Source of the DNA: Schmidtea polychroa
Taxonomy: Eukaryota
Length of the DNA stretch: 64,000 bases
Reading direction: 5' to 3'
NCBI GenBank assembly: GCA_044892525.1
Contig: CM097885.1
Coordinates: 30,010,001-30,074,000, forward strand
Part shown: one piece after another, positions 15,850 through 59,088 of the stretch
Numbering within the stretch: position 1 is the stretch's first letter
How the letters are laid out: every line of letters starts with the position of its first letter
The notes under the pieces: generated by a model
What the model was told of the DNA's origin: nothing
What the model saw: only the letters and a program-made list of their open reading frames with translations
The model's database searches: none
Position numbers and translations under genes: made by a program

Positions 15850-18800
15850 CAATAAAAAATAATTTAAGCCTTTTGCTGCAAATAATGTATTTAATGAAAG
15901 AATTTTCGACTATAAGATAGTCCTTGTCAATCTCCGGGAATTTAGCAATGTTCTTCCCCAAAATACCTTTCAATCTTTCTTTTATTTCCTTTCTATTAAT
16001 TCTCATTGGTTGTAAATATAATGACTAACTAAAAATTTTTAAAATTTTTTACATTTAAAATTTCAAAATGACACAAACTAAAAATTTTTAAATTTTTTTA
16101 CAGCTTCTATAATTAGCTTCTAGAAGTCTAATAAAATATTTGAAAATATTCTAAATAAAGCCTCCAATAACCACTTATATATGCTATTTAAATATTTCAA
16201 TGAATATGTCAATTTTGATTTTAAAACCCTATTTTTTTAAAATTTTTTCTATATTATTCTAATTATTACTTTTTAATTTATTCTATTTTTTTTTATTTCT
16301 TTATATATTGTCAGTTATTCTCAAGGTCAATGACAACAGATCAAATTCATGATTTCATTGATTTCTTCTTTAGTGTTGATCTTTGGCTGTCTGTTTATGA
16401 TGAGAATTGCTTCTTTGAATCTGACATTTTTCTTTTTGATGTTTCCATTAGCTATGATTTCTATTGAAATATTTTTTCTTTCCTCTGTTGGCTGACACTG
16501 CCGGAGATGTCTGCCCAACGAGGATGTTCCACCAGGATCTAGATGTTCTTTGACTCTTTGGTGCAAGGTCCTAGGGATACTTCCAATGTAGATTTCAATG
16601 CATACATTGCACGTGATGCAATAGACGATGTTTTTTCTAAAGCACATATCTTTCGGTGTCTGGCAGTTTTTCATTGTGCAATTGTTTTCTCTATTTATGT
16701 TGCCTGCCAGAGCCCTTCTCAATGTCCAAGATTTATGTGCAATCCGAATTGGAAGACCGGTACGCTTAAGTTCTTTCAAGATCTTGAAGTCGAGAATGTC
16801 ACTGATGAATAGGATATTCAGATAGAAATATTTCTGATTCTCTTGTGTTAATTCCCTAGATCTTTTTGGGGTAGAATTCATTCTTTCAATGTCCTCACCT
16901 TGGTATCCGTTTCGCTGTAGGATTTTATTGAAATTTGATTGTTCTTTAAAGTTTTCGTTTTTCTCCGTGCATCGATTGGCTATTCTTCGTTTCTCTTATG
17001 ACATGTACTTTCTGTAAGTATGGAAGCGCTGATCTTTGGTTCATAAATATTTCTTTGCGAGATGGTTTTCTGTAGATCCGTATGTTGGAGTATTTCCTTC
17101 TATTTTGATTCTCAAATCCAATACATTGAGGGATCCATCTTCTTCCGGATATTCGATTTCGAACTTAATATCTTGATGAGCCGCATTGAATCTATGAAAT
17201 ATTTCCTCCGCTTCTTTTCTGCTTTTGGTCGTGATGAAGATGTCATCTACATATCTTGCATAGAAACCGATGGGTTGTATGGTCCTCAGTGTCTGTCGTT
17301 CGAGGTTATCCATAAAGATGATTGCTAGCAGTCCTGATATGCTAGAACCCATAGGCAGACCTTTAACTTGTTTAAAGATATTTTGTTCAAAGGTAAAATA
17401 GGTGTTCTCGAGGTTAACAATAAGTAGTTTGGTGATATTCTCAATATTCATTTCCTTTATTAACAAGTTGCTTTCTCTTAATTTCTTTTCTAAACATTGA
17501 ATAGCCTCTGTTGGTTCGATAGATGTGTATAGTGATACGACATCAAGACTGAATGGGTATTGGAATTCTCTATGACAAGTGAGTTTTAATTAGGTGGTAG
17601 AAGTTAGGAAGATCAGAATATTTTGTGACGAAGCTGTTGGTTATTCTGTTGTTGAACCTCATTTCCCAAGCTATGGCTTTCCATACTTTGTTGATCTTCA
17701 TTTCGATGGTGTTTGTGACATGCGGCTGACTTTCTTGTAAGTTTCGATGTTACCGAGGTGTTCGTAACCAGCTTCACAGTAACGATTCCTCTCTATAATG
17801 CAAAATTCTCCCCCTTGTCACTTGGTAAGTAAACGTACGGTTTCTTTTTAAGGGATTTTAATATTGCCTGTTTGTCTTTCGTTAGGTTTGAGAGATATGG
17901 TTTTCTTCTTTCCTTCTCAACTATCTCCATGATTTTGTGACAGACCTTTGAGAGTGTTGAATCTAATTCTGCATCAGGATTTGGTTGATAGAGTTTATCT
18001 GTGTTTATGTATACTGGGAGCTGGTTTTCGCTATTTTCATTTTCATGCTGTATTGTATTGTTCCATTTGATCTGGTACGCAATGCGACAAAGAGCTGTTT
18101 TGAAATTGAGGATGGCTGCTTCATCTATTTCTCTGTTTATACTGAACTTTGGTGCTAGTGAAAGTAATCCTTTTTCACCTTTGGATAGACAATTTGTGAG
18201 GTCGGTTACTAGTTCTTTGTTCACTGTAATGCTTTCGTTTCCGTCCAGTGTTTCATTGTTCGAAACAAGGCCTGCTTTGAGCTCCTTTTTCTCAAAAGGT
18301 GTTTGATTCTTTTCTCAAATCGCAGGGAATAATGTGCTTCTGCTGTCATGAAGGATTGTCTTTGTACCTCGTAGAACAATTCTTTTGGGTGGTTATTCAA
18401 ATACGTCTTCAAAATGTTTTCTTGATTCTTTTGTTCCCGATGAGTTTCTCAGTACATACTTCTAATAAAATTTTTTAAAATATACTCTTTGATGTTTTTA
18501 TTTCTCTTGATGTTTTGATCTTTGTTGAGAATCTGAGGTAAGTGGATGTTATCAATTGTTGTTGGATAGATCATTGTTTCCTTACATCGGCGAAGGAAAT
18601 TTATTTGGCAGTATAATTTCGCAATTTTCTCGTTGTTTCTAGCTATATTCCGTATTTCTAAGTATTTTGCCCGGCTCAGGCCTTTCGAAAGTATAAAATG
18701 ATGATTTCTTGGTAGCAGCATTTATTATTTAAAACAATAAAATAATAATTTAAGCCTTTTGCTGCAAATAATGTATTTAATGAAAGAATTCACAACCAAA

Positions 18801-19275: not shown

Positions 19276-19914
19276 TCAACTTTGTTTTGAACTTTGTTTA
19301 TAAACCATGGCACCTTTTGGGTTGAAAATATCTGTTTTTACCCGTATATCATCAGGACATTGTTGTGTGAAATCGAGAAATATATACCCATGAGGTATTT
19401 TCGTACCATCTTTTTATGCATTGATAAGAAAATTACGGTTATTAGGGTATGCTTGTCGTCCAAGAAAATCAATCACTGTTGCATCTCTAGGATTCTTGAA
19501 AATAACTAAATATTGTACATTTAAATTACGTGTTCCACGTGCACCACCTTGATGAAATAGATTTTGTGTTATGAAAATAACTGTTACACCAACATGTCTG
19601 CTGATTTTTGTTAATAAATTATTAAAATCCTTTTCTTTATTGGCTTCTTGGTACACATCATCAATAATGATGACATAATCTTTCTTCAAACGTCTTGACC
19701 ACTTTTTATCAAAACCCTTTACTATTTTCATGTTTTTCAACTGACAGAAACTTGATTGGGTCAATCCATATTCTTCGTCGGCGCCCTTATGCCAATAAAT
19801 ATTATTGAATTTTATTTTAAACAAATTTTATTTTAGTAATTTACAAACAAATAATGTTTTTCCAATACCACTTGGACCAACGATTTGGTATACTGCATCA
19901 TTTCTTAATTCCAT
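19276..19914 (-). pseudogene. Polinton A32/FtsK-like packaging ATPase, lineage B
   Basis: Walker A VGPSGIGKT, Walker B IIIDD, SRHVGVTVIFITQNLF, YLVIFKNPRD; in-frame stops. Confidence 0.9.
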
Positions 19915-20479
19915 TTTCCCAGTCATTTCTTTAATTTCTGGAGCCAACTCCACTTGATAATTCGTTTCTTCAATTTTTGTTTCTGGTTTCGTCAATAGTA
20001 TCTCCCTTAGTCTCGCATCAGGTGCTTTATTTGCGATGAGATCTTCTTCTGATCGTCCTGAATTTACAACTTCAGCTAAAGCTTTCCTTAGCCGTATCTC
20101 AAAAGCTGCAAACCTTTCATCATCTTCCTGTTCCATAGTTGCCAATTCTCTGATTTTGTAATTGTGAACGTATATAAGAACCGAGCTTTGGCTTTCACAT
20201 CAGTTGTTTCTTTTTCTCTGACGTTTCCCGACAATGTCTTTGCTTCTGCCATTAATAACACATCGAAAGTGCTTGTCAATCGCTGTCCATTTGTCAGCAA
20301 CCATTCTTCGATATCTCTAATCCATTCTTCGGCTTCTTTTAAACCTCGTCCATCATATCGCCTGATGTTCAGTGTGAGCATATCTTACATGATTTCGCTA
20401 GGCATTCCATCAGCGATTTTGTAGATTTCTCAATGGTGCTGATATTTTGATTTTCGGCGAGGTCGCCAGTTAAATCCAT
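19915..20479 (-). mobile_element. LTR retrotransposon (Gypsy-like) gag fragment
   Basis: IRRYDG...AEEWIRDIEEW and MHR-like QEDDERFAAFEIRLR; frameshifted. Confidence 0.6.
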
Positions 20480-38001: not shown

Positions 38002-38738
38002 ATGGAAGATGATTTAAAAAAAATGGTAAACATAATGTCTAATAAATATTCAAGAAGTTTATTAATAAATTCAAATGAATCAGATTTTACTATAAATTTT
38101 GAAGACTCAATAAATTTAGATAAAGATTTAAATTATGAATTAGGACTCTTGTGGTTTTCATGTTTTAATACTATTTTTAATATAAACTCTAATAATAATA
38201 AATTTATACTTGAGAGTAATAATAATATTATACGAATTGAACCTGGATCATATGAAATCTTAGATTTAGCAAAAGTAATTTCAAAAGAAACAAATGGAAA
38301 TGTAGAAATAAAAGCAGATGTTCAAACCTCTAAATGTATATTAACTTTAAAAAATGTTGGACTTTCTTTTAATACTTCTAGTTTCTTTCATACTATTTTA
38401 GGTTTTGAAGCTAAAGAGTATACACCTGGAACAACCTATGGAACCTTTAAATCTAAAAATATTATACAGATTACAAATACAAATTCTATAAATATTGAAT
38501 GTGATTGTATAACAGGTTCATATAATAATGGTAAACATGCAAATATTTTATATTCTTTTCCTTCAAACATTGTAAGAGTTGGATATAAAATGGTTGAAAG
38601 AATGAATCCTCCAAATTATTTACCAATATGTAGAAAAACATAATGAGTATAAGTTTTAAAATTGTTGATGAAAACGGAGAATTGATTAGTTTTAATGGAG
38701 AAAAAATTTCAATGTGTTTATCTTTAAGACAGGTCTGA
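38002..38738 (+). pseudogene. Minor capsid (penton) protein, copy 1, frameshift near 38640
   Basis: DFTINFEDSINL...YELGL...FNI...NNKF...IEPGSYE...INIECDCITGSYNNG...ILYSF...GYKMVE...YLP, then IVDENGELISFNGE in the shifted frame. Confidence 0.85.
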
Positions 38739-38810
38739 TCCTTGATAAAGGTCTGATAAAGGTCTGATAACCTAGCCAGGCTAAACTATCAGGATTTTAT
38801 TAGTAAATAA

Positions 38811-38953
38811 ATGAATTATAATAAATTTGGTTTATATAATGAAGGATTAAAAGATGAAGATGTTTTAAGCTTAACAGAAAAAAAATATATTAATGAAAAA
38901 GGTGATTCCATGAAAGGAGATTTAATTTTAAATGGACATAGGATAAAAGAACT
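38811..38953 (+). pseudogene. N-terminus of a fibre-like protein, truncated by a rearrangement
   Basis: KYINEKGDSMKGDLILNGHRIKEL resembles the GDxMxGxL fibre/adhesin motif; follows the penton gene. Confidence 0.5.
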
Positions 38954-39688
38954 TACCTTTACTCTCATGATTTCTAATTCTGTTGGAGCAGAAGGCAGTG
39001 GTTCTCTACCTGAGAGTTCTCTTATCTCTGGATAGACCCCTGGGGGGAACCGTTAGATAAATTTTTTCAAACTTTACATCCTCCATTTTAATAGTTAAAA
39101 AATAATTAATTAAACTCTCAACAAAACTTTATTGTCTGGTACCAATACTCGCATATCATAAGAATCTCTTGTTGAGAGAATGTCTTTATACAATTCTTTC
39201 AATGCTTTACGAACTTCATCAACATCAACCTTTTTTTCATAAAATATTAAATCTATATAATCCACAAGTGTGCTTTTAAAAATAATATTCTTACTTTTAA
39301 CTTTATGTGTTTTGTGTGATTCAGTATTATCATGCCAATGTCCATGTGGTAAATCATAACCACTCATTATAACATCACCCTTTTCAAACTTACTATTATA
39401 ATCACATTTCACAAACCAAGACATTATTTCACCATCATCATTAAATAAAAGGAAATAAGGATCTATAATCTTTACAACCATAAAAACACTCCATTCTTTA
39501 CTATTTGTTGTTATTAAAGTTGGTTCTATAAAATGTTTATATGTATGGGGTAATAATATTTTATTCTGTTCTAATTCAGCAGCTCTTTTTCTAATACTAT
39601 GTGTGGTGTTAATGTGTGTTGTATGAGACTCTAATTTTACAAGTCTTGCATTAAATGATGTAATCATCTCATTTATTATGTTATATAT

Positions 39689-42153
39689 CAGAGCTGGCGA
39701 ACCTATGGCACGTGTGCCCAAAGTGGCACGCGAGACGATTTCGTGTGGCACGCCAAACCTTTGAGATAAAACAAATTTGTGTAAATTTTAGTAGTATAAA
39801 ATCATTGAAATCGCAATTTAACACTTCAGCATGATTTTATTGTGCAAATATTTTAGAAACCGTTAAGTAGGAATCGAACAATAGGTCATTTTCAGATGGC
39901 AGAATATATATTTCTTATGATTAAATCTATAAATTATTTTCTATCATTTTTTGTATATTCCGCATTTGTTTTAACAAGTAAAAATAAACAAGTTAAGATG
40001 CGCACAAATTTGATGACGCAGACATCTTGTTGACATTATTATTGGTGAAAAATTGAATTTATGTTGTAAATATTTAATATTTTAAAAATAGAAATTTTGC
40101 TAAATAAAATGTCGTGTTCAAAGTTAAAAAAAAAAACTTTCAGAAGGAAGTGGCAGGGAATTCCAAGATTAGTGGACTGAACGATATGGAGTAATCAACA
40201 AACAAAGTAAGGCCTTGTGTGTCTTGTGTTCTGAAAGCGTTGTTTGTCGAACATCTTCAGTTAAATGTCACTATGAAAGTAATCACAATTGGCTTCTTGG
40301 CAAAAGCGAAGATGAACAAAAAGAATATATATTGCGCCAGTTAAAAAATGCAAATTTACAATCCTGTTCGTTTGTAAAGTTTGTTAAAGTACATCTAACT
40401 TAGTGTCTGCAAGTTTCGAAATTTCCAAAATAATATCTAAGCATGGCAAGTCTTTCAGTGATGGTGATTACATCAAAGAAACTTGCGCCATATTTGTTTG
40501 AAGATTTTCCAAATAAAGACCAAATTTTTCAGCGAATAAAAGATCTGCCAATTAGTCGAAATACAGTAAAAGAGAGAATAATTAACTTGAATTCAAATAT
40601 TGAGAAATAATTAAAAGAAGACATCAAGTTATGTCAGGCCTTCTATATTTGCCTGGACGAGTACTGATGTAACATCGTCTGCTCGATTAGCCATCATTGT
40701 TAGATATTCGAAAGAAAACAAACTGCGCGAAGAACTAATAAAACTGACCAAGTTATTTGGAACAACAACGGGTGCAGAAATATGCCAAAAAGTCGTAGAT
40801 GAACTGAAAAATGCAGATTTAGACGTAAATAAAATAGTCTCTGTAACGACTGACGGTGCACCAAGTATGACTGGAAAAGATGCGGGTTTAGTGAATTTGT
40901 TTACGAAACATGTTGGACACCCACTGTTTGCGTTTCACTGTACTGTGCACCAAGAAGCCTTGTGTGCAAAATCCGATTTGAAGGAACTTGAAGATGTTAT
41001 GAAAATGGTAACAAAAATTGTAAATTTCATTACTACTCGTGCTTTGAATAAGAGAAAATTTGAACTGCTGTTAAATTAAGTCTAGTCCGTTTACTCTGGG
41101 TTACTAGTGTATAATAGTGTTCGCTGGCTTAGCAGAGGTCGTGTGCTGGAACGTTTCGTGGAATGCCTTGATGAAATTCAGCAGACTAATGTTCTTTACA
41201 GATTTTACTTCACATCTAAATGAACTTAACACTAAGTTGCAAGGTTTTGGAAAAACCGTTGACGAGGCTTTTGACGTTATAAAAGCATTTGAAAAGAAGT
41301 TGAAAATTTTCAAACGTGATTTAGAAAAACAAGAGTTTCAATATTTTCAAATACTTAAAAGATTTTATACTGAAATAGAAATCCATGAAACCGTTGTCAA
41401 AGAAGCTCAAATTTTGCTATTTTTAGAGACAATCGACGCAACCCTCGAACAATTTTCAGTGTGTTTTGTTCAGTTTAGAAAGTTTGAAGACACATAAAAA
41501 TTTTTTAAAATATCCAGATACAGTCGAGTTTGAAAATTTGGATTTAACAATGTTCGACTGGATGGAAGTTTTTGAAATGCAGTTAGTTGAGCTACAGTTC
41601 AGCTCAATTTGGAAACAAAAGTTTGTTGACTTACGAGTGCGACTTGAAAGAATTGAACGTGAGCGCTGCAATGGATCAGAACCGCTGCTACCAGCTGAAA
41701 ATGAGGTGCTCAGTGTATGGAATTGTCTTCCTGAAACTTTCAACTCTCTGAAAAAAGTAGCGATTGCGATTTTGTCAATTTTCTCATCTAGTTACTCGTG
41801 CGAATCATTGTTTTCATCGATGAACTTTATAAAATCAGACACCAGAAACAGTTTGACTGACGACTTGAGTGCAGCTTGTGTAGCTTTGGAGAATACAAAA
41901 TATTCTCCAGATATAAAACTTTTATCATCCACTATACAACAGCAAGTCACATTGATTTTACTAAGTCACTAAATCACGTTAAATATATTCTTATAGTAAA
42001 GTTATACTATTATAGTAATTGTAGTTTTGTTAAAATTGAAGTATGTAACGGAATCAATTAAAATGCTAAAAAATGTACTTGGCACGCCAGCGTGTTTTTA
42101 TTTTTCAATTTTAAAATATTGGCACGCAATCTAAAAAAGGTTCGCCACCCCTG
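39689..42153 (+). mobile_element. Full-length hAT (Charlie/Buster, GTF2IRD2/EPM2AIP1-like) transposon, 2465 bp
   Basis: TIRs CAGAGCTGGCGAACCT / AGGTTCGCCACCCCTG; perfect 8-bp TSD TTATATAT (39681-39688, 42154-42161); subterminal TGGCACG repeats. Confidence 0.95.
40109..41972 (+). pseudogene. hAT transposase, multiple stops and frameshifts
   Basis: BED-like CVLC...HY...H, CLDE.TDV, VTTDGAPSMTG, FHCTVHQEALC, VRWLSRG, IFSSSYSCESLFSSM. Confidence 0.9.
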
Positions 42154-42469
42154 TTATATATTGTATTAATTTTATTATCCATAAGTTGTTTATGCATTAG
42201 TCTTTTATTTTTTAAAATTGATATTGTATCAGTTAACCTTTGAGTTTCTTCAGCTATCTTTTTAGCTTCTTCATTTAACTGGGTTTGTAATTTATTTATT
42301 TTAGATTCTAGTTAAGATTCTAAAGAATTATTAATAGTAGGTAGATAGTGGCCTACGGGAACAATTACCCCCCCCCCGGGGGGGGGGGGGGGTTTGTTCC
42401 CAAATTTTTATTACGCAATTGTTCCCAACTCATTTTTTTGCTTTCAGGGATTTTTGGTCCAAATTTTTT

Positions 42470-42995
42470 TTTATCACACTATAGTGAGAGGGTCTTGATG
42501 GTCCTGGGAATTTCTATACAAAAATCCGACTATCAATAAAAAAGTCAAGGATTATTCACACTATAGTGAGGGGGTCTCGATGGTCCTGGGATTTTCAATA
42601 CAAATAAAATTTTTTCTATACAAAAATCCGACTACCACTAAAAAAGCCAAGGATTATTCACACTATAGTGAGGGGGTCTCGATGGTCCTGGGATTTTCAA
42701 TACAAAAATCCTACTACCAATAAAAAAGCCAAGGATTTTTCAGACTATAGTGAGGAGGTCTCGATGGTCCTGAGAAATAGGTGGTCTACACTAAAAAAGC
42801 ATGGTAATTTAAGGTCTCGGGATATTTTCAATACAAAAAGCTGGTCTACACTAAAAAAGCATGGTAATTTAAGGTCTCAGGATATTTTCAATACAAATAG
42901 GTGGTCTACACTAAAAAAGCCAAGGATTTTTCAGACTATAGTGAGGTGAGTCTCCTTGGTCCTGAGAAATAGGTGGTCTACAGTAAAAAACGTGG
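42470..42995 (+). repeat. Subterminal modular ~50-100-bp repeats with palindromic CACTATAGTG cores (mirror at ~56975-58050 with more copies)
   Basis: cactatagtgagggggtctcgatggtcctgggattttcaatac and ctaaaaaagcatggtaatttaaggtctc modules. Confidence 0.9.
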
Positions 42996-43820
42996 TAAAT
43001 TTTTCAATTAAAGTAAATAATGGTCCTAAAAATTAAATTACAGTAAATAATGGTTCTAAAAATTAAAGTAAATTATGGTTCAAATTTTTCAATTAAAGTA
43101 AATAATGGTCCTAAAAATTTAATTAAGGTCCTAAAAATTAAATTAAAGTAAATTAAGGTTCTAAAAATTAAATTAAAGTAAATAATGGTTCTAAAAATTT
43201 AAATTACAGTAAATTATGGTTCTAAAATATTAAATTACAGTAAATTATGGCTCAAATTTTTGAATTACAGTAAATTATGGGTCTAAAAAATTAAATTACA
43301 GTAAATAATGGTCCAAATTTTTAAATTAAAGTAAATTATGGTCTAAATAAGTAAATTATGGTTCTAAAAATTAAATTATAGTAAATTATGGTTCTAAAAT
43401 ATTAAATTACAGTAAATTATGGCTCAAATTTTTGAATTACAGTAATTAATGGTTCTTAAAAATTAAATTAAAGTAAATAATGGTTCTAAAAATTTAAATT
43501 ACAGTAAATTATGGTCTAAAAATTAAATTAAAGTAAATTATGGTCAAACATTTTAAATTAAAGTAAATAATGGTCCAAATTTTTCCAATACAGTAAATTA
43601 TGGGTCTAAAAATTAAATTACAGTAAATAATGGTTCTAAAAATTAAATTAAAGTAAATTTAGGTTCTAAAAATTAAATTACAGTAAATTAAGGTCCAAAT
43701 TTTAAAATTAAGTAATCAATGGTAAAAAATTTTAAATAAGTAAATTAAAGTAATAATTTTTAAATTAAGTAATCAATGGTAAATAATTTTAAATAAGTAA
43801 ATTAAAGTAAGATTTTAAAA
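42996..43820 (+). repeat. AT-rich minisatellite built on AAATTA(A/C)AGTAAAT(T/A)ATGGTTCTAAA (mirror ~56230-56970)
   Basis: Many degenerate tandem copies. Confidence 0.9.
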
Positions 43821-44019
43821 TTTATTAACAAAAAGTTGAAGGTGTTTGAGAATTGAAATTTTTTAATGAAAATTTTTATGGAATAATTTTTTTAAGTAAT
43901 TTTTAATGGAAATTTTTATGAAATATTTTTCAATGATAATTTTAGATGGAAATTTTTAAGATAATTTTTAATGAAAATTTTTATGAAATATTTTTCAAAG
44001 ACAAATTTTAATAATAATT

Positions 44020-45420
44020 CAACAACAAACCAACAACTTAGTACCAACAACCAGTAACTTATGAACATGTATTAACAACCAGATACCTACAACTAGTTAC
44101 TAACAACCAGTTACCTGATACCAGATACCTACAACTAGATACCTACAACTAGTTACCTGATACCAACTACTAACAACCACCTACCCATTAACTAGCTACA
44201 ACCCGCTAACAACTAGCTACCACCTACCAAGTACTTACAACTAGATACCACGTACTAAATAACTCTCAAACAACCAAGTACCTACAACAAATTACCAGAT
44301 ACCAAGTACCTACAACTAGTTACTAACAACTAGTTACCTGATACTAAGTACCTACAACCACCTAACAAGTACTAACAGCCAAAAACAAGCAACCAACCAG
44401 GTACCAGATACCACCTACTAAGTACCAACAACCAACTAGCTACCAGATACCTACAACTAGATACTAACAACTAGATACCAAGTACCTACAACCACCTACC
44501 CATTAACTAGCTACCAAGTACTAACAACTAGGTCTCAAACAACTAAATACTAACAACCAGTTACCAACTACTAAGCATTAATTACCTACAACTAGTTACT
44601 AACAACTAGATACCAAGTACTTACAACCACCATCAACCAGGTACTAAGCATCATCAACTAACTACTAAGTACCTACAACCTACAACTAGATACTAACAAC
44701 CAGTTACCTGCTACCAAGTACTTACAACTAGTTACTAACAACCAACCAACTAGGTACTAGATACCAAGTACTTACAACCGACAACAACCAGTTACTAAGC
44801 ATTATTAACCAACTACTAAGTACCTACAACCTACAACTAGATACTAACAACCAGTTACCTGATACCAAATACTTACAACTAGATACCAAGTACTATCAAC
44901 CAAAAACAACCAACCAACTAGGTACTAGATACCAAGCACTCACAACCAACATCAACCAGGTACTAAGCATTATCAACCAACTAAATACTAAGTACTAACA
45001 ACCAACCAACCAGTTACCTGATACCAAGTACTTACAACTAGTTACTAACAACCAGATACCTACAACTAGTTACTAGATACCAAGTACTTACAACCGACAA
45101 CAACCAGTTACTAAGCATTATTAACCAACTACTAAGTACTAACAACTAACTACCACCTACCAAGTACTAACAATCAAAACAACCAAGTACTAACAACCAA
45201 CAACAACCAGCTAACAACTAACTACCACCTACCAAGTACCTACAACTAGTTACTAACAACTAGTTACCCATTAACTAGCTACAACCAACACTCAACTAGC
45301 TACCAACTACTAAGTACCTACAACCAACATCAACCAGGTACTAGATACCAAGTACTAACAACCAAGTAACTTACCTAGTAATAAGCACTGTCAACTAGGT
45401 ACCAAGCACTTACAAGCAGA
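44020..45420 (+). repeat. Strand-biased C/A-rich satellite built from ACTAACAACC / ACCTACAACTAG / TACCAAGT words (mirror ~54870-55985)
   Basis: G-poor low-complexity array; organisation differs between the arms. Confidence 0.9.
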
Positions 45421-45721
45421 TGACCACATGAAATTATTGGTTAAATATGAAAATAAGGGTTATAATTAGTTGTTAAGTAAATTATGGTGTAAAATTAAGA
45501 AATAAAGAATAATTAGGTAAATTAAAGTAATAATTTTTAAAAAAGTAAATTAAGGTTCAAATTTTAAATTAAATAAGTAAATTAAAGTAATAATTTTTAA
45601 ATAATTAATGTACTAAGTAAATTAAACTAAGATTTTTAAATTTATTATCAAAAGATTGAATAACCACCAACTTTTTTGAGAAATGTAATTTATAATGTAA
45701 ATTTAAATGGAAATTTAAATG

Positions 45722-45722
<1 letters not shown>

Positions 45723-45800
<78 letters not shown>
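45723..45800 (+). repeat. (AAT)n microsatellite (imperfect mirror at 54476-54568)
   Basis: Pure AAT run. Confidence 0.95.
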
Positions 45801-46213
45801 TCAACAGTTACCAACAATCGGTTACTGATTATTTTTTAACTAGGTGCTAACAAATACTTACACCATGATACCACGTACTAACTAACTCTCAAACAACCAG
45901 ATACTTACAACTAACTACTAAATATTCTTTATTGTATTTTATGAAATGCTTTTTAAATTAATTTTTTATCTATCTTCAAAAATATATTTAATTACAATCA
46001 TTAGAAAAACCTTTTCAAATTTAACAAAAATGTTGATTTTCATCAAAAAACCACAACTCATCACCACGTGGAATTCAAAATAATTTAAATGAAAGACTAA
46101 TGAATTCTAATTTACAAAACATTCTTCTTTTAATTGATAACTACTGACTTATTATTGCAAAGTAAAAATCGCATTCAATAAATACTTATTGTTGATCAGT
46201 TTTATTATATATA

Positions 46214-49078
46214 CTCTGAGTTTATCCGACAGGATGTTTTGACCCCCCTAAGGGTACAGGTCGTAAGGGTACTAGTCGTAAGGGTACTGGTCGTAAGGGT
46301 ACAGGTCGTAAGGGTACTGGTCGTAAAGGTACTAGTCGTAGGGGTATTGATCACTCTCAATCCCCACCTACCCATTAAGTAGTTACTATCAATCAGCTAA
46401 CAACTAGATACCATGTACTAACAACCACCATCAAAACCCATCGAGAAATTAACAAATATCAACCTACAACTAGATACATACAACCAGATACCTGCTACCA
46501 AGTACCAAGTACTAACAACCAACTACTTACAACCAACAACTATGTACTAACAAATTGATCTTTAAAAGCAAATACTCATCACTTGAAAAATTAGATGGAA
46601 AATTAATTGAACTCAAGGCATCAATAACTTGATAAAAATTGATTAAATTATTGTAAAAAATTTAAATTATTCGAAATAAATATCATAAAAATTTAATTAA
46701 TGGACAAGAAAAAATTCTAATCATCCAATAAATAAAAAAAATGCTGATCATTCAAGTTGAATCAACTAAGATAATAAATTAATAAGATAAGATCTAGTAG
46801 ATAATTGATTTAGATTGAATAAATTATTTGAAATAAAATTTATTTTAAGTATTTTTTTAAAAGTAATACATGTACTCAAATCTATTTACTAATTCCTCAA
46901 TATATTCAAAAAATCAGTATGAATTCATTAAAATTATCAAAGTCAGCAATCTACAATAAAAATAATTATCATTAAATTCCAAAAGAGACTAGATAACTAA
47001 TGATAACATCTAACAAACCAGTAAATTCATTTAAATAATTGGTATATTCAAGCGAATTCTCTAATAAAATCATCTAAAAAGCATCAAATTTCCCTGAAAT
47101 ATATCAATATTTAAAGATTGGTATCTTATCGATAAGTACTTGTTAAAGATCATATATTCACCTCGAACTAACAAGATTCCTTAAAATCCCTCAAATGACT
47201 ATATTTCTACCCTTAATTCGTATTATTACAAATATTTCACTAAAATCATCTAAAAAGCATCAAATTTCCCTGAAATAACTATATCTTTAAAGATTAGTAT
47301 TTTATCGATAAATATCCTTAAAAGGTTATATATTTACCTCTGACTAATAAGATTGCTTTAATTCCTATTATCACGAATATTTCCTTATAAAACATGTAAA
47401 ATCATTAACCCTAAAGAATTTATAAAATCTAATGACAAAACCGGTTATAATAAAATTTTTGTTAATCACTGTAAATTTTTGTAAATCACTGTACTCGAAA
47501 TTTAAAATATATATAACTGACTAGGTCCCATTAAAAGATTAAATTTATCCATTCAATAAAATATATTTCTTCAAATGATCATTTTACCGATATTCAACCG
47601 ATTTAATTACTAATTAAAATCAAGATTTCTTCCAATAAAGATCAATTTTATTTAGTTGTCGATGTTTTAAATCAATATTTCTAAACTTTTGTCGTTGTCC
47701 GTCTAAATAAAGATAAAAATAATTTAAAGCTGATATCAATCCCAATTATCTGTAAAGTTTTCATCGTCAAAACCAAGTAAATCGATCATTATCCCTACTT
47801 AATAAAACATTGTTCTAAAATAATTTACTGTGCATTAATCACAACCTAATAAAACGATATAATTATTATTGATTCATAACTGACTAATGTATTGCAATTT
47901 CCTTAAAAAACATTGATATTTTACCAACATCACCCTTAAAAAATCATATATTCCCATCGAAACCCTTCCCTCATTAAAAGCAACCGACTATATCTCCCTC
48001 ACAATAATATATTCCCATCTTAACCCATCTCACATTAAATCTAACCGACTATATCCCCTTAAAAGATCATATATTCCCATCTTAACCCATCCCTCATTAA
48101 ATTTAATAACCGACAATATCCCATCTTATCCGATCTCTCAGCAAATATTTCTACCCTTTTAAACATCTAACCGAATATATCCTTCAATTCTACCCACTTG
48201 AATCCTCCTTTAATTCAATTCAGTCTTAAAATCTTTAAAGAACTTCAAAAATATGACTTAATTGTTATAGACACCAAATATTCTTCCATTGAAATAATTT
48301 AGTAGCTATGTAGTAAGAGTTCACTAAAAGATCAAAAATCAATATTTTCTACAAATATTTACCATCAAATACTGGAGATGATATATATTGATTGATCATA
48401 ATTCTTCATCGATTCAACCAATCATTTTCAAGCAATAATAGCAAACTACAATCATTTTCAAGTAAGTTAACTGGTTTCTTAGCTTATGTTTTTTAAAGTT
48501 CATCAATGAGTAAATATTCTTAGAAAAATATTGAAAACATTATTTAGTCAAATACATTACAAAGTTATCATCAAAAATCACTTAATTATTAACCTAATTG
48601 TCAATGAAATTAATTTTTATTTAAAAACTATTCAATAAAATACAACTAATTATCAAGAAATTAATTAAATTTATCATAGAACTAACTTTAAATATTCATT
48701 CAATAAACATGAAATTCACAAAAAACGATAAAAATTCACAAGAATGATAGAAATTCACAAAAAACGATAAAAATTCACAAGAATGATAGAAATTCACAAG
48801 AATGATAAAAATCCACAAGAATAATAGAAATTCACAAGAATGATAGAAATTCATAAAAATGATAGAAATTCACAAAAAAGATAGAAATTTACTTGAATAA
48901 AACCATCAACTCTAAAAATTATCAATGAATGCCTTATACAAATTTGCCTAAATAATCATTCAAATAAAAACATTAAATACCTTTACAACTAATACCCTTG
49001 CGACATGTTGAATGTGAGTAGTACCCTTGTGAGCAATACCCATAGGGGGACAGAATATTTTGTCGGATAAACTCAGAG
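46214..49078. mobile_element. Non-autonomous TA-flanked TIR element (Tc1/mariner-like ends), 2865 bp, left-arm copy
   Basis: TA|CTCTGAGTTTATCCGACA ... TGTCGGATAAACTCAGAG|TA with imperfect extension to ~45 bp; internal 15-bp (AGGGTACTGGTCGTA) and ~20-bp repeats; no ORF. Confidence 0.75.
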
Positions 49079-49620
49079 TATATATTAATTAACTCATTTT
49101 TCATTGAATTAGTCAAATTATCATAAATTTCGATAAAAAATCTAAAGTGGTAAGCAATGTAAAGAGAAATATTCTTTAAACTTTGATAAAATTAACAATG
49201 AAGGTGGTAAGAATCTTCATTAAAGTGAGTAAATTACTCGATGATAAATTCAAATGGGTGAAAATAATTGGTAGAATAATTCATTAATGGAGGTAAATAA
49301 TGAGAAGTGGCATGGATAACATGAAGGTTGATAAGAATGGAAGTATATTAATTTATTTAAAATTATTTCATAAAATTCATAAATTTAATAAAAAAAAAAC
49401 TTTTAAGACAAATATTTGTGGGGAATAATTAATCAAAATCGGGGGGATATTAGTGATTAATTAATGGAAAATAGAGAATCGGGGAATATAAGTGAATAAT
49501 TAATGGAAATTCTAGGGAATACAAATGATTAAATAGTGGAAATCGGGGGAATATAAGTTATAATAATTAGTGGGGTATTGAGAATCGGTGGAATATAAGT
49601 GAGAAGGATATGTAATTTAA

Positions 49621-50663
49621 ACTATTTTATTACATAACAAGCCATGACTAGTTTATTGCATAACAAGCTGTGAACGGGATTTTACCAACATTTTACCTAG
49701 TATTGAATTTAATTTTTATTGTATTTTTAAATTGTATATATTTTCAATATCATTCTATTGTTTTATTCCAATAATAAGTTTAAAAAGTATATAATGATTA
49801 ATAAATTAATATCGTGTTAACATTTATTTGAGAATTTAAAAAACTTTACTTAAAATTTAGTGAAATATTTAATTTTGATTGTATTTTATAAGACATATAT
49901 TTGAGTATTAACTTATTTTGATTGAAGTATTATATTCAATATTATGATGATTTTTTTTTCTAAATTAAAATATTTTAGTGTAAAATAGTAAATTTAATAA
50001 TGAATAGAATACAATATTAAAGGACTTTTTAAAAAGAAAAATTACTTTCTATTACCTAATTCCATCATTAAGTTTAAGAAGTCTATAACTGTTAATAAAT
50101 CAATTTCTTATTCACATTTTCTTATAAAATTTATATTTTTAAATTTAGTGTAAAGAATTTAATTTTAATTGTATTTTATAAGTCATTTATTTGAATATTT
50201 ATCTTATTTTTATTGAAAGGAGTAATATAATTAATAATATGATAATTGTTTTTGAAATATTTAGTGTAGAATAATAAATTTATTAATAAATAATTATTAC
50301 AATATTAAAGGACTTATACAACAAAATTTTTGTCTTATTCCATAAAAAAGTTTTAAAGTATATAACTGGTAATAAATTAATTTCTTATTTAAATTTATTT
50401 AAAAAAGCTTTACTTATAAAATTTGTATTTTCTAAGATATATATTTGAATATTCAACTTATTTTGAATGAAAAGGGTAATATATATATATATTATTTTCT
50501 TTTATGATAATTGTTTTTGAAATACATAATGTAAATTAAAACATTTTAGTATTAATTAGTTATTATTTTAGAATTTATTTTTGTCAAAAATTTAAAAAAA
50601 ATAAGACCATTCACAGCTTGTTATGTAATAAACTAGTCACGGCTTGTTATGTAATAAACTAGT
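49621..50663. mobile_element. MITE-like unit at the palindrome axis with imperfect ~54-bp inverted ends and about three diverged ~280-bp internal repeats
   Basis: ACTA(T/G)TTTATTACATAACAAGCC(A/G)TG motif doubled at each end; internal repeats near 49860, 50145, 50420. Confidence 0.5.
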
Positions 50664-51205
50664 TTAAATTACATATCCTTCTCACTTATATTCCACCGAT
50701 TCTCAATACCCCACTAATTATTATAACTTATATTCCCCCGATTTCCACTATTTAATCATTTGTATTCCCTAGAATTTCCATTAATTATTCACTTATATTC
50801 CCCGATTCTCTATTTTCCATTAATTAATCACTAATATCCCCCCGATTTTGATTAATTATTCCCCACAAATATTTGTCTTAAAAGTTTTTTTTTTATTAAA
50901 TTTATGAATTTTATGAAATAATTTTAAATAAATTAATATACTTCCATTCTTATCAACCTTCATGTTATCCATGCCACTTCTCATTATTTACCTCCATTAA
51001 TGAATTATTCTACCAATTATTTTCACCCATTTGAATTTATCATCGAGTAATTTACTCACTTTAATGAAGATTCTTACCACCTTCATTGTTAATTTTATCA
51101 AAGTTTAAAGAATATTTCTCTTTACATTGCTTACCACTTTAGATTTTTTATCGAAATTTATGATAATTTGACTAATTCAATGAAAAATGAGTTAATTAAT
51201 ATATA

Positions 51206-54070
51206 CTCTGAGTTTATCCGACAAAATATTCTGTCCCCCTATGGGTATTGCTCACAAGGGTACTACTCACATTCAACATGTCGCAAGGGTATTAGTTGTA
51301 AAGGTATTTAATGTTTTTATTTGAATGATTATTTAGGCAAATTTGTATAAGGCATTCATTGATAATTTTTAGAGTTGATGGTTTTATTCAAGTAAATTTC
51401 TATCTTTTTTGTGAATTTCTATCATTTTTATGAATTTCTATCATTCTTGTGAATTTCTATTATTCTTGTGGATTTTTATCATTCTTGTGAATTTCTATCA
51501 TTCTTGTGAATTTTTATCGTTTTTTGTGAATTTCTATCATTCTTGTGAATTTTTATCGTTTTTTGTGAATTTCATGTTTATTGAATGAATATTTAAAGTT
51601 AGTTCTATGATAAATTTAATTAATTTCTTGATAATTAGTTGTATTTTATTGAATAGTTTTTAAATAAAAATTAATTTCATTGACAATTAGGTTAATAATT
51701 AAGTGATTTTTGATGATAACTTTGTAATGTATTTGACTAAATAATGTTTTCAATATTTTTCTAAGAATATTTACTCATTGATGAACTTTAAAAAACATAA
51801 GCTAAGAAACCAGTTAACTTACTTGAAAATGATTGTAGTTTGCTGTTATTGCTTGAAAATGATTGGTTGAATCGATGAAGAATTATGATCAATCAATATA
51901 TATCATCTCCAGTATTTGATGGTAAATATTTGTAGAAAATATTGATTTTTGATCTTTTAGTGAACTCTTACTACATAGCTACTAAATTATTTCAATGGAA
52001 GAATATTTGGTGTCTATAACAATTAAGTCATATTTTTGAAGTTCTTTAAAGATTTTAAGACTGAATTGAATTAAAGGAGGATTCAAGTGGGTAGAATTGA
52101 AGGATATATTCGGTTAGATGTTTAAAAGGGTAGAAATATTTGCTGAGAGATCGGATAAGATGGGATATTGTCGGTTATTAAATTTAATGAGGGATGGGTT
52201 AAGATGGGAATATATGATCTTTTAAGGGGATATAGTCGGTTAGATTTAATGTGAGATGGGTTAAGATGGGAATATATTATTGTGAGGGAGATATAGTCGG
52301 TTGCTTTTAATGAGGGAAGGGTTTCGATGGGAATATATGATTTTTTAAGGGTGATGTTGGTAAAATATCAATGTTTTTTAAGGAAATTGCAATACATTAG
52401 TCAGTTATGAATCAATAATAATTATATCGTTTTATTAGGTTGTGATTAATGCACAGTAAATTATTTTAGAACAATGTTTTATTAAGTAGGGATAATGATC
52501 GATTTACTTGGTTTTGACGATGAAAACTTTACAGATAATTGGGATTGATATCAGCTTTAAATTATTTTTATCTTTATTTAGACGGACAACGACAAAAGTT
52601 TAGAAATATTGATTTAAAACATCGACAACTAAATAAAATTGATCTTTATTGGAAGAAATCTTGATTTTAATTAGTAATTAAATCGGTTGAATATCGGTAA
52701 AATGATCATTTGAAGAAATATATTTTATTGAATGGATAAATTTAATCTTTTAATGGGACCTAGTCAGTTATATATATTTTAAATTTCGAGTACAGTGATT
52801 TACAAAAATTTACAGTGATTAACAAAAATTTTATTATAACCGGTTTTGTCATTAGATTTTATAAATTCTTTAGGGTTAATGATTTTACATGTTTTATAAG
52901 GAAATATTCGTGATAATAGGAATTAAAGCAATCTTATTAGTCAGAGGTAAATATATAACCTTTTAAGGATATTTATCGATAAAATACTAATCTTTAAAGA
53001 TATAGTTATTTCAGGGAAATTTGATGCTTTTTAGATGATTTTAGTGAAATATTTGTAATAATACGAATTAAGGGTAGAAATATAGTCATTTGAGGGATTT
53101 TAAGGAATCTTGTTAGTTCGAGGTGAATATATGATCTTTAACAAGTACTTATCGATAAGATACCAATCTTTAAATATTGATATATTTCAGGGAAATTTGA
53201 TGCTTTTTAGATGATTTTATTAGAGAATTCGCTTGAATATACCAATTATTTAAATGAATTTACTGGTTTGTTAGATGTTATCATTAGTTATCTAGTCTCT
53301 TTTGGAATTTAATGATAATTATTTTTATTGTAGATTGCTGACTTTGATAATTTTAATGAATTCATACTGATTTTTTGAATATATTGAGGAATTAGTAAAT
53401 AGATTTGAGTACATGTATTACTTTTAAAAAAATACTTAAAATAAATTTTATTTCAAATAATTTATTCAATCTAAATCAATTATCTACTAGATCTTATCTT
53501 ATTAATTTATTATCTTAGTTGATTCAACTTGAATGATCAGCATTTTTTTTATTTATTGGATGATTAGAATTTTTTCTTGTCCATTAATTAAATTTTTATG
53601 ATATTTATTTCGAATAATTTAAATTTTTTACAATAATTTAATCAATTTTTATCAAGTTATTGATGCCTTGAGTTCAATTAATTTTCCATCTAATTTTTCA
53701 AGTGATGAGTATTTGCTTTTAAAGATCAATTTGTTAGTACATAGTTGTTGGTTGTAAGTAGTTGGTTGTTAGTACTTGGTACTTGGTAGCAGGTATCTGG
53801 TTGTATGTATCTAGTTGTAGGTTGATATTTGTTAATTTCTCGATGGGTTTTGATGGTGGTTGTTAGTACATGGTATCTAGTTGTTAGCTGATTGATAGTA
53901 ACTACTTAATGGGTAGGTGGGGATTGAGAGTGATCAATACCCCTACGACTAGTACCTTTACGACCAGTACCCTTACGACCTGTACCCTTACGACCAGTAC
54001 CCTTACGACCAGTACCCTTACGACCTGTACCCTTAGGGGGTTCAAAACATCCTGTCGGATAAACTCAGAG
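51206..54070. mobile_element. Non-autonomous TA-flanked TIR element, 2865 bp, right-arm mirror copy
   Basis: Same length as 46214-49078 and its near-identical reverse complement. Confidence 0.75.
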
Positions 54071-54475
54071 TATATATAATAAAACTGATCAACAATAAGT
54101 ATTTATTGAATGCGATTTTTACATTGCGATAATAAGTTATCAATTAAAAGAAGAATGTTTTGTAAATTAGAATTCATTAGTCTTTCATTTAAATTATTTT
54201 GAATTTCACGTGGTGATGAGTTGTGGTTTTTTTGATGAAAATCAACATTTTTTGTTAAATTTGAAAAGGTTTTTCTACTGATTGTAATTAAAATTATTAA
54301 TTTTAAAAAGCATTTCATAAAATACAATAAAAAATATTTAGTTGATTGTAAGTAGTTAGTTGTAAGTATCTGGTTGTTTGAGAGTTAGTACGTGGTATCA
54401 CGTTGAAAGTATTTGGTACTTATTTGTCAGCACCTAGTTAAAAATACATGATCGTTGTTGGAATCTGATTGTTGA

Positions 54476-54535
<60 letters not shown>

Positions 54536-57500
54536 ATTATTATTATTATAATTATTATTATTATTATTCCATTAAAATTTCCATTAAAATTTTCATTATA
54601 AATTACATTTCTCAAAAAAGTTGGTGGTTATTCAATCTTTTGATAATAAATTTAAAAATCTTACTTTAGCTTTAATTTAAAATTTGAACCATTGGATACT
54701 TAATTTTAAATTTTGAACCATTGTTTTCTTTAATTTAAAATTTTTAACTTTAATTTACTTATCCTTAATTTACCTAATTACTCTTTATTTCTTAATTTTA
54801 CACCATAATTTACTTAACAACTAATTATAACCCTTATTTTCATATTTAACCAATAATTTCATGTGGTCATCTGGTTGTAAGTGTTTGGTATCTAGTTGAC
54901 AGTGCTTTGTACTTGTTATCTAGTTGTTAGTACTTGGTTGATAATGCTTAGTTATTGGTTGTATGTACTTGGTATCTAGTTGTTAGTAACTAGTTGTAGG
55001 TAATTAATGCTTAGTACCTGGTATCTAGTTGTTAGCTGGTTGTTAGTACTTAGTTGTTGGTTGTAAGTAGTAGGTATCTGGTAGTTAGTTGTTAGCTGGT
55101 TGTTGGTTGTTAGTACTTGGTAGCTAGTTGTTAGCTGGTAGTTAGTACTTAGTATCTAGTACCTAGTTGGTTGGTTGTTGGTACTTGGTATCTGGTTGAT
55201 AGTTGGTTGTTAGTACTTGGTAGGTGGTTGGTTGTAGGTACTTAGTAGTTGGTTAATAATGCTTAGTACCTGGTTATTGTTGGTTGTGAGTACTTGGTAT
55301 CTAGTTGTTAGTTTTTTGCTGGTTGTTGGTACTTAGTAGGTGGTTGTAGGTACTTAGTATCAGGTAACTGGTTGTTAGCTGGTTGTAACTAGTTAATAGG
55401 TAGGTGGTTGTTGGTAATTAATGCTTAGTACCTGGTTGATGTTGGTTGTTAGTACTTGGTAGGTGGTTGGTTGTTAGTACTTAGTAGTTGGTTAATAATG
55501 CTTAGTACCTGGTTGTTGTTGGTTGTGAGTACTTGGTATCTAGTTGTTAGTTTTTAGCTGGTTGTTGGTACTTAGTAGGTGGTTGTAGGTACTTAGTATC
55601 AGGTAACTGGTTGTTAGCTGGTTGTAACTAGTTAATAGGTAGGTGGTTGTAAGTACTTGGTAGGTTGTAAGTAGTTGGTTGATTTTTTAGATTTTGATAA
55701 GAAGATATTGTATTTGATGAAGAATATTTTGTATTTAATTGCAATTATTTTTATGTGTTGTTAGTTGATTGTTGGTACTTGGTATCTGGTTGATAGTTGG
55801 TTGTTAGTACTTGGTAGGTGGTTGGTTGTTAGTACTTAGTAGTTGGTTAATAATGCTTAGTACCTAGTTGTTGTTGGTTGTTAGTACTTAGTATCTAGTT
55901 GTTAGTATCTAGTTGTAGGTATCTGGTTGTAACTACATGTTCGTAAGTTACTGGTTGTTGGTACTAAGTTGTTAGTTTGTTGTTGAATTATTAATAAAAT
56001 TTGTCTTTGAAAAATATTTCATTAAAATTTTCATTAAAAATTATCTTAAAAATTTCCATCTAAAATTATCATTGAAAAATATTTCATAAAAATTTCCATT
56101 AAAAATTACTTAAAAAAATATTCCATAAAAATTTCCATTAAAAATTACCATTGAAAATTTTCATTAAAAAAATTTCAATTCTCAAACACCTTCTATTATT
56201 TCAACTTTTTGTTAATAAATTTAAAAATCTTACTTTAATTTACATATTACATTACTTATTTAAATATTATTACTTTAATTTAATTTTTTTACCATTGATT
56301 ACTTAATTTTTAAATTTGGACCATAATTTACTTTAATTTAATTTTTTAGAACCATAATTTACTGTAATTTAATTTTTTTAGAACCATAATTTACTTTAAT
56401 TTAATTTTTAGAACCATAATTTACTTTAATTTAATTTTTTAGAACCATTATTTACTGTAATTTGAAAAATTTGAGCCATTATTTACTTTAATTGAAAAAT
56501 CTGAGCATATTAATTACTTTAATTCGAAAATATGAACCTTAATTTAATTTTTTAGGACCATAATTAACTTTAATTTAATTTTTTAGGACCATTATTTACT
56601 TTAATTTAAAATTTTGAACCTTAATTTAGTTATTTGAGCCCATTCATTACTTTAATTGAAAAATCTAAGCCCATAATTTACTTTAATTCAAAAATTTGGA
56701 CCATAATTTACTGTAATTTAAAAATCTTAGTCCATAATTTACTGTAATTCAATTTTTTTTAGACCATAATTTACTGTAATATAATTTTTTAGAACCATAA
56801 TTTACTGTAATTTAATTTTTTAGGACCATAATTACCTTATTTGAAAAATTTGAACCATAATTTACTTTAATTGAAAAATTTGGACCATAATTTACTGTAA
56901 TTTAAAAATCTTAGTCCATAATTTACTGTAATTCAATTTTTAGAACCATAATTTACTTTAATTTTAAAAAATTTACCACGTTTTTTAGTGTAGACCACAT
57001 ATTTCTCAGGACCAAGGAGACCCACCTTAATTTAATTCGAAAAATCCATGCTTTTTTATTGATAGTCGGATTTTTGTATTGAAAATATCCTGAGACCTTA
57101 AATTACCATGCTTTTTTAGTGAGACCGCCTTTTTGTATTGAAAATATCATGAGACCTTAAATTACCATGCTTTTTTATTGATAGTCGGATTTTTGTATTG
57201 AAAATATCATGAGACCTTAAATTACCATGCTTTTTTATTGAAGACCAGCTTTTGTATTGAAAATATCCTAAGACCTTAAATTACCATGCTTTTTTAGTGA
57301 AGACCAGTTTTTGTATTGAAAATATCCTGAGACCTTAAATTACCATGCTTTTTTATTGATAGTCGGATTTTTGTATTGAAAATATCATGAGACCTTAAAT
57401 TACCATGCTTTTTTAGTGTAGACCAGCTTTTTGTATTGAAAATATCCTGAGACCTTAAATTACCACGTTTTTTTAGTGTAGACCACCTATTTCTCAGGAC

Positions 57501-58185
57501 CAAGGAGACTCACCTCACTATAGTCTGAAAAATCCTTGGCTTTTTTAGTGGTAGTCGGATTTTTGTATTGAAAATATCCTGAGACCTTAAATTACCACGT
57601 TTTTTTTTAGTGTAGACCACCTATTTCTCAGGACCAAGGAGACTCACCTCACTATAGTCTGAAAAATCCTTGGCTCTTTTAGTGATAGTAGGATTTTTGT
57701 ATAGAAAAAAATTTTTCGTATTGAAAATCCCAGGACCATCGAGACCCCCTCACTATAGTGTGAATAATCCTTGGCTTTTTTAGTGGTAGTCGGATTTTTG
57801 TATAGAAAAAAATTTTTTGTATTGAAAATCCCAGGACCATCGAGACCTCCTCACTATAGTGTGAATAATCCTTGGCTTTTTTAGTGGTAGTCGGATTTTT
57901 GTATAGAAAAAATTTTATTTGTATTGAAAATCCCAGGACCATCGAGACCCCCTCACTATAGTGTGAATAATCCTTGACTTTTTTATTGATAGTAGGATTT
58001 TTGTATAGAAATTCCCAGGACCATCAAGACCCTCTCACTATAGTGTGATAAAAAAAAATTTGGACCAAAAATCCCTGAAAGCAAAAAAATGAGTTGGGAA
58101 CAATTGCGTAATAAAAATTTGGGAACAAACCCCCCCCCCCGGGGGGGGGGGGGTAATTGTTCCCGTAGGCCACTATCTACCTACT

Positions 58186-59088
58186 TATGGTGAATTAACA
58201 GGTTGGATTCCTGATGTTAATAAAGGGGATTTAGATAAAGATGGTTTAGATATAAATTATGGTTACCATAAAAGAGCTGAACTTTATAAATCTAAAAGAT
58301 TTGAAGGTTATTTTGAATTAAAACACTTATTTGGATTCCTTCAAAATTATAACCGTGTACTTCATAATGTTTTTATAGAATTCATCTGTAATAGACTAGA
58401 AGGTGATAAAAGATTGTTCTATGGAGCTGCAGATACAAAAGCTAAATTAAAATTATCAACACTTGAATTGCATATACCTGAATGGACATTAAACCCACAT
58501 TCTGAAATCAAACTCCTTGAAAGATTAAATTCCAACAAGTCTATAAATGTAAATTATTTAAATAGAATCTGTAGTGAATTTAGTATGACAGAGGGTTCAA
58601 CATATTCTATAAAGGTAACAAATTTAGCATACCGACCAAGATATATCTTGATTGGATTCAAAGACACAGATTCATCTTTCCAAAAAAATAACAACCTATT
58701 TATTCAAAAGATTGAAAATGATAATTTAAAAACAATCCAAATTCAATTAAATAGTTCTTATTATCCAATAAATAGAATGGAATTTAATATTGAAAATAAT
58801 GAAAACATATTCCCATATCTAAATTATATTGAAACATGTTATGATTTCAAAGTTGAACCGCAATTAAGTTTAGAAGATTTCAAAATTTTATATTCTATAT
58901 TTTGTATAAATGTTTCAGACCAAGATGATCGCCTAGCCATAAATAATGTTGATGTTACACTTCATGTAACAAAGGATTCTAATTTTAAAGCTAAAGTATA
59001 TACATTAATATTAGAAGAAAAGAAAATAGAAATGAAATTATATGGCGGAAAGATTTCAATTATTGAAAATGTTAGGGGAGATTCTTGA
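58186..59088 (+). pseudogene. Major capsid protein, copy 2, 5'-truncated by the foldback element
   Basis: Resumes immediately after CTACT with YGELTGWIPD (YGESTGWIPD, about residue 129 of copy 1); open to the stop at 59088. Confidence 0.9.

Follow-up and report, generated by a model that had tools for sequence, protein, structure and literature searches.

A gene-free palindromic element with Polinton ends in Schmidtea polychroa, probably a satellite of a co-resident Polinton family

We analyzed a 64,000-nucleotide stretch of the Schmidtea polychroa genome (C1:30010001–30074000 of a 781-Mb assembly, C1 being contig CM097885.1), referred to in the following as the window, which carries at positions 42336–58185 a giant foldback with Polinton-like ends. 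The family to which this element belongs very probably consists of non-autonomous, palindromic satellites of an active Polinton family resident in the same genome. A snap-back origin of the palindrome is most likely, and packaging of the element into the capsids of its helper is possible. The earlier note, made from the letters of the window, had proposed a non-autonomous, Polinton-ended element that is nearly all inverted repeat, and this proposal is supported by a terminus in common with an autonomous Polinton, by target site duplications (TSDs) of 6 bp, and by an inverted repeat that makes up 94% of the element.

Structure of the window element

The arms were defined by self-comparison of the window. 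The element begins with AGTAGGTAGATAG and finishes with CTATCTACCTACT. The coordinates and ends that the earlier note had given were exact, and its arms of ~7.3 and ~7.6 kb and ~0.9-kb spacer were confirmed. The parts of the element are as follows, where TIR stands for terminal inverted repeat and helper for the autonomous Polinton described below:

42336–58185, no strand: the complete element, palindromic and gene-free, 15,850 bp long; a chimeric copy without TSD
42336–49677, + strand: left arm, 7,342 bp
50607–58185, − strand: right arm, 7,579 bp
49678–50606, no strand: AT-rich spacer of 929 bp that contains a direct repeat of ~380 bp
42336–44015, + strand: left true TIR, common to the helper Polinton, with an AGT-AG end and a poly-C/poly-G hairpin
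55986–58185, − strand: right true TIR, common to the helper
44030–46137, + strand: middle part of the arm, confined to the gene-free family, with degenerate 7/14-bp ACAACCAG-type arrays and (AAT)26
46138–49677, + strand: inner arm; its mirror is 50607–54146

The arms are indeed reverse complements of each other, as had been noted, but they are near-identical only over the inner 3,540 bp, which contain 13 differing positions. The outer arms are 73–97% alike in 500-bp bins, with large indels in tandem arrays that differ in repeat number, a divergence on which the earlier note is silent; the switch from diverged to near-identical arm lies at about 46140–46280. The left true TIR holds 102/82/60-bp and 30-bp tandem arrays; the right one is longer because it has more repeat units.

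As the earlier note had stated, the element encodes nothing credible. No open reading frame (ORF) of 120 aa or more was found within it in an ORF search, and the longest stop-to-stop frame in the left arm and spacer, 113 aa, was at the level of shuffled sequence (mean 108 aa in 50 block shuffles). An ORF listed from position 58093 was rejected as a product of the element, since it belongs to the adjoining capsid gene, of which it is a stop-to-stop frame. A search of the left arm and spacer against Rfam (E up to 2) gave no matches, and a tRNA scan of the whole window found none.

The terminus is common to an autonomous Polinton

An autonomous Polinton with the same terminus, which we call the helper, was found at C3:111589546–111606934 (17,389 bp, TSD CATAGT). 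Its first 165 nt are identical to those of the window element at 165 of 165 positions, and similarity extends for about 1.4–1.7 kb. Both have the end AGTAGG-TAG, which is one base off the (AGT)2 of PMC8097293. Past the TIR, comparison of the interior with the helper and with the Polintons of the window by blastn and tblastx yielded only one 45-bp low-complexity match.

The helper encodes a 1,415-aa protein with three family-B polymerase motifs and many homologues bearing PF03175. Sequence searches of Pfam, PHROGs, and the PDB did not name this protein directly; the motifs and homologues identify it as the Polinton polymerase (pPolB), so that a pPolB-bearing Polinton does share the terminus, as had been anticipated. 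A double jelly-roll (DJR) capsid-like protein was recognized with a score of 0.98, the family being found on 14–30% of cluster members. Further ORFs correspond to an rve integrase with a chromodomain, an A32 ATPase, a RING protein, and TBP. The TBP-like ORF (PF00352, E 5e-16) is at L032:6043–6555 and the RING-finger ORF at L031:8361–9506.

The terminus is present in many copies. Its 30-mer occurs 344 times in exact form across the assembly (164 on the plus and 180 on the minus strand; control 0), and a looser terminus pattern 1,629 times (control 16). A search for the terminus in viral contigs gave no matches.

Copy number, target site duplications, and length of the family

The centre of the element (arm–spacer–arm) is represented by at least 40 scored copies with 86–100% identity, and a 24-mer from the spacer is found 107 times in the genome without mismatch. 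A 26-mer from the middle of the arm (45417–45442), outside the common TIR, matched 2,946 times with up to 2 mismatches, balanced between the strands. If paired, these matches would represent about 1,470 elements, and should most of the marker pairs be full-length, the family may fill some 2–3% of the genome. Helper 30-mers, searched with up to 3 mismatches, matched 287 times (ATPase) and 1,197 times (pPolB). The counts suggest that copies of the gene-free family far outnumber the helper, although they are rough because conservation differs between motifs. At the first 100 places of the mid-arm marker there were 31 close pairs facing inward and 5 facing outward. Gaps of 9–11.5 kb, corresponding to unit length, were found in 15 of the inward pairs; 9 gaps were shorter than 7 kb, 2 were 7–9 kb, and 5 exceeded 11.5 kb. 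One short-gap copy was probed and had no terminus in the 901 bp where it was expected. A second terminus type, with 259 exact matches, bounds many of the spacer-bearing copies.

When 22 pairs of ends were compared, 16 had an exact 6-bp TSD, one had it behind an extra terminal ACT, two had it with one mismatch, and three had none; the chance of an exact 6-bp match is about 0.0006 per pair. For the 15 copies with the gene-free marker, the corresponding numbers were 9, 1, 2, and 3, the last including the window copy. The 5–6-bp TSDs foreseen by the earlier note are thus found in the family, mostly as exact 6-bp repeats, but not at the copy from which they were predicted. The copy with the extra ACT, C1:5691791–5708550, has it at its right end, ahead of the TSD; a slip in jumping-back initiation might leave such a triplet.

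Most fully bounded copies also have the length of a Polinton genome, as had been supposed: 12 of 15 gene-free-type copies measured 15,510–17,507 bp and the other three 19,268–21,314 bp, and 8 of 9 helper copies with one pPolB motif measured 16,586–18,124 bp. At C1:1830656–1853983, two markers that face inward enclose an autonomous helper copy (1836403–1853479), which is apparently nested in a gene-free copy.

Concerted arms and palindromic relatives

The inner 1.1 kb of the arms was compared in 27 copies, 3 of 30 having been skipped for lack of an anchor or of length. Left and right arms of the same copy had a median identity of 100%, with at least 99% in 22 of 27 and a minimum of 70% in a copy with a deletion, and identity between copies had a median of 91% (84–100%). 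In a tree of the arms, pairing was mostly by copy or subfamily. The two arms of a copy thus appear to evolve together. In two gene-free copies (L059 and L060), the arms reach into the former spacer, which indicates that these copies re-folded within it.

Palindromes were also found among Polintons that retain genes. Among the first 100 exact matches to the pPolB motif on C1, 18 of 22 close neighbours were in mirror orientation, with implied element lengths of 8.0–18.7 kb (median 16.5 kb). One of these, C1:14588190–14604110, carries the terminus on both sides, with a pPolB motif some 2.3 kb inward of either, and is flanked by the TSD TATTAT; since this 6-bp TSD is its own, the element was inserted as a palindrome. 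In a helper derivative at C3:36848210–36860296, the fold point is at C3:36856855, 8.6 kb inward of the left end, and coincides with an imperfect inverted repeat of short length. Polintons whose two arms both carry pPolB are thus present in the same genome as the gene-free family, which supports a snap-back origin.

Mirror pairs were likewise seen among 88 exact matches to the ATPase motif, three of them 10–12 kb apart and two at the ends of longer elements:

C2:2386021–2397659: ATPase mirror pair
C3:106258359–106268604: ATPase mirror pair
C3:106787182–106797442: ATPase mirror pair

The spacing of these motifs suggests palindromes of the other half of the Polinton. Polymerase-half palindromes are abundant and apparently lack the integrase/capsid half, and there are about four matches to the pPolB motif for every one to the ATPase motif. 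At C1:213933901–213945986, four tandem ATPase motifs with a 4.0-kb period make up an array of a Polinton piece.

Flanks and origin of the window copy

Both ends of the window copy cut Polinton genes, in agreement with the earlier note:

58186–59088, + strand: right flank with the 3′ portion of a DJR major capsid gene from a Polinton; the cut is at TATGGT (58186–58191)
42154–42335, − strand: left flank, a fragment of another Polinton gene, oppositely oriented and with a stop codon
32820–32825, + strand: homologous empty site with TATGGA present once, within the capsid gene of the Polinton copy upstream

Beyond the cut capsid gene on the right are a PLA2-integrase gene, an A32 ATPase gene, and further Polinton genes. 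The gene cut on the left is homologous to an ORF of this downstream Polinton, and its remainder (39110–39688) lies past a hAT element.

The window copy carries ATTAAT and TATGGT at its two ends and has no TSD. A sister copy of 16,056 bp (C1:29620477–29636532), 430 kb upstream, sits in a capsid gene and is flanked by the TSD TATGGT. The right outer arm of the window copy (4,039 bp) together with 215 bp of flank matches the sister at 100% (as rounded by the tool), and the sister's own left arm matches the same right outer arm equally well, at ~100%. The arms of the sister are thus alike over the outer 4 kb, while the window copy drew its left outer 3.8 kb and its left flank from some other insertion. 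The window copy is a recombinant (chimera) of two insertions, and the switch between diverged and near-identical arm is likely the crossover.

Among 30 fetched ends, two flank the Polinton family of the window, and one of these is the window copy itself. Nesting is therefore not a property of the family. The position inside Polintons is incidental, and the Polintons that were cut are another family, with a polymerase only 29% identical to that of the helper. The location within Polintons described by the earlier note thus holds for both junctions of this copy but not as a family trait.

Several other repeats were seen in the window. The hAT element (39689–42153) is inserted in the Polinton gene with the 8-bp TSD TTATATAT and has a broken transposase (PF05699). 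At 38648–39688, near the left junction of the element, the upstream Polinton has an internal inversion, flipping orientation near 38960–39060 relative to the downstream copy. Old fragments of helper-type Polintons (79% identity), including an ATPase gene, are present at 13410–13682 and 19281–19917. Positions 16327–17589 have a reverse transcriptase and a weak GIY-YIG match, corresponding to fragments of a Penelope-like retroelement, and such fragments also occur in the flanks of two fetched ends. Just downstream of the polymerase of the right-hand Polinton are Gypsy-type retroelement ORFs and an ORF with an XPG domain (L035:8380–9693, L036:3–1094, L036:5128–6738).

Proposed mechanism

In protein-primed replication of the adenovirus type, synthesis starts at either end, and the displaced single strand can anneal via its inverted ends. 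The gene-free element has at both ends the complete terminal origin and attachment sequence of the helper, and its copies are inserted as units with the 6-bp TSD that is the signature of the Polinton integrase. By the logic of strand displacement, the helper pPolB would copy the element from either end, and the helper integrase would insert the product. The displaced single strand would snap back over its full length, with one arm re-templating the other; arms that are near-identical while copies diverge are expected if the whole displaced strand does so. The palindromes themselves probably arose when replication switched templates at an inverted repeat of short length, such as that seen in a relative, which would produce a palindrome with two valid origins. 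Finally, the usual length of 15.5–17.5 kb might be kept by packaging into helper capsids. This is the weakest step, to which we give slightly less than an even chance. The jumping-back role of end repeats and a capsid size constraint are both stated for Mavericks (PMC8097293).

A number of observations weigh against this reading. The interior is repeat-rich filler with no DNA or translated similarity to helper genes, and it thus gives no evidence that the element descends directly from a folded half of the helper: an interior taken from one parent half, as snap-back would leave it, is found in the pPolB palindromes but not in the gene-free family beyond the TIR. No read spans the whole element, and polishing of the assembly could inflate the identity of the arms. 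Among the 18 pPolB mirror pairs, 17 are known by motif spacing alone. The size argument is weakened by the second class of marker spacing (9 of 31 gaps below 7 kb), and three of the 15 gene-free-type copies are 19–21 kb long. Most spacer-bearing copies on C1 lack the exact helper terminus, and a second terminus type exists. The length and TSD samples favour young copies, in which both ends are recognizable, and "gene-free" is a marker-based designation for all copies other than that in the window, of which parts (ends and centres) were read.

Alternative explanations

The arms might instead have been built and homogenized in the chromosome by host repair, through TIR expansion, gene conversion, or ectopic recombination as in Galileo. 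Polintons would still mobilize the element, its length would simply be inherited, and there would be neither snap-back nor packaging. Galileo TIRs do grow by recruiting internal sequence and yield chimeric copies without TSD (PMC3573991). In the present family, the window copy and two others have no TSD, and one copy (L045) has arms of two subfamilies. However, mirror derivatives of both helper halves are about unit length despite their different sequence, the pPolB palindrome with its own 6-bp TSD was inserted as a palindrome, and the fold point of the helper derivative is at a short inverted repeat. We consider an origin by host repair rather unlikely. Far less probable is an artefact of assembly from fold-back chimeric long reads, although the inner arms are near-perfect and no public contig spans the structure, the public contigs being fragmented. 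Distinct left and right flanks are joined by 6-bp TSDs at many loci, conserved spacer subfamilies occur at 107 places, the arms differ at scattered sites, and all 30 bins of the arm–spacer–arm centre are represented in short-read contigs from three runs in two studies. No RNA data set was listed as containing the centre; one further run (X8), conceivably RNA, covers 23 of the 30 bins and was left out of account. We rejected this explanation on these grounds.

Two further explanations were rejected. The alternative named in the earlier note, a cut-and-paste transposon of the Foldback (FB), Galileo, or Mutator type with very long repetitive TIRs and its own transposase, would account for the long arms with their tandem sub-repeats, for copies that are chimeric, and for the rearrangement of flanks. 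FB and Mutator elements have TSDs of 9–11 bp, which is not the 6 bp found here. A full Polinton has the identical terminus, and the window copy contains no transposase ORF. Galileo, for its part, has a 7-bp TSD and TIRs of only up to 1.26 kb (PMC3573991). This explanation is thus highly improbable. A parasite that targets Polintons, inserting into their genes and disabling them, was suggested by both window junctions and by the sister insertion, all of which are in Polinton genes. However, the right junction and the sister represent one event rather than two, the Polinton family of the window adjoins only 2 of the 30 termini that were fetched (a mixture of autonomous and gene-free ones), the TSD sequences have no common motif, and Polintons are very abundant in the genome. 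Such targeting is very unlikely.

Comparison with known systems

The satellite resembles autonomous Polintons/Mavericks (Polintoviricetes) in its 6-bp TSD, its length of about 17 kb, and a TIR that is that of a resident element with pPolB, DJR capsid, integrase, and ATPase; its end is similar to an AGT repeat but one base off (AGT)2. In vertebrate Mavericks, the TIRs measure 46–1,447 bp, the TSD is 6 bp, and the length is 16,862 ± 1,678 bp (PMC8097293). Unlike these, the window element has no genes, neither pPolB nor integrase, and its arms are 7.3–7.6 kb. Like the non-autonomous Polinton-N1A_NV, it would need a helper for replication or integration, but Polinton-N1A_NV still encodes a capsid protein (PMC11296320).

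The closest mechanistic parallel is provided by the 5′- and 3′-snapback genomes of adeno-associated virus (AAV), which are self-complementary, consist of the left or right moiety plus a terminal repeat, and depend on a helper (PMC8235507). AAV genomes snap back from either half, and Polinton palindromes of both halves are present here. AAV snap-back genomes are transient particles, whereas the Polinton palindromes are integrated with TSDs, heritable, and divided into subfamilies; the gene-free family also differs in having no recognizable viral genes. Galileo 2-TIR copies and Drosophila FB elements share with the family long repetitive arms, a makeup of almost only TIR, and chimeric copies without TSD, but Galileo has another TSD length and another enzyme, and its 2-TIR copies, at 1.7–2.2 kb, are about one eighth of the size (PMC3573991).

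A literature search found no description of a gene-free, unit-length, whole-element Polinton palindrome; the founding Polinton paper, Repbase, and supplements lay outside this search. Non-autonomous Polintons are reportedly included in Kapitonov and Jurka 2006 and in Repbase, and entries for this family, or for palindromic Polintons that are non-autonomous, may already exist in Repbase or the supplements of papers. No gene-free palindromic Polinton appears in the available portions of PMC3014272, PMC6431247, PMC11296320, PMC5499653, bioRxiv 10.1101/2024.01.15.575659, and 10.1101/2023.08.22.554363.

Implications

It has long been asked whether the Polintons of animals replicate extrachromosomally and produce virions. 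Strand-displacement replication is expected to yield palindromic derivatives as a by-product, and a passenger without genes that is kept at the length of a genome would naturally report on packaging. More tentatively, and with somewhat less confidence than in packaging itself, we suggest that Polintons in this genome may replicate as free, linear, packaged genomes that shed snap-back defectives of capsid length. One such lineage would have become a gene-less satellite, with stuffer arrays tuned to unit length. Together with the polymerase-half and capsid-half palindromes, it might constitute an inherited defective-interfering swarm that outnumbers its helper several-fold.

The family also defines the cis-sequence sufficient for Polinton mobilization, which is at most the common 1.4–1.7 kb, and it supplies the genome with kilobase palindromes that recombine and rearrange their flanks. 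Surveys that call for both polymerase and integrase (the method of PMC8097293) are blind to such elements, which may therefore be overlooked elsewhere. The findings suggest that Polintons, like viruses, shed fold-back defective genomes, which live on as parasites.

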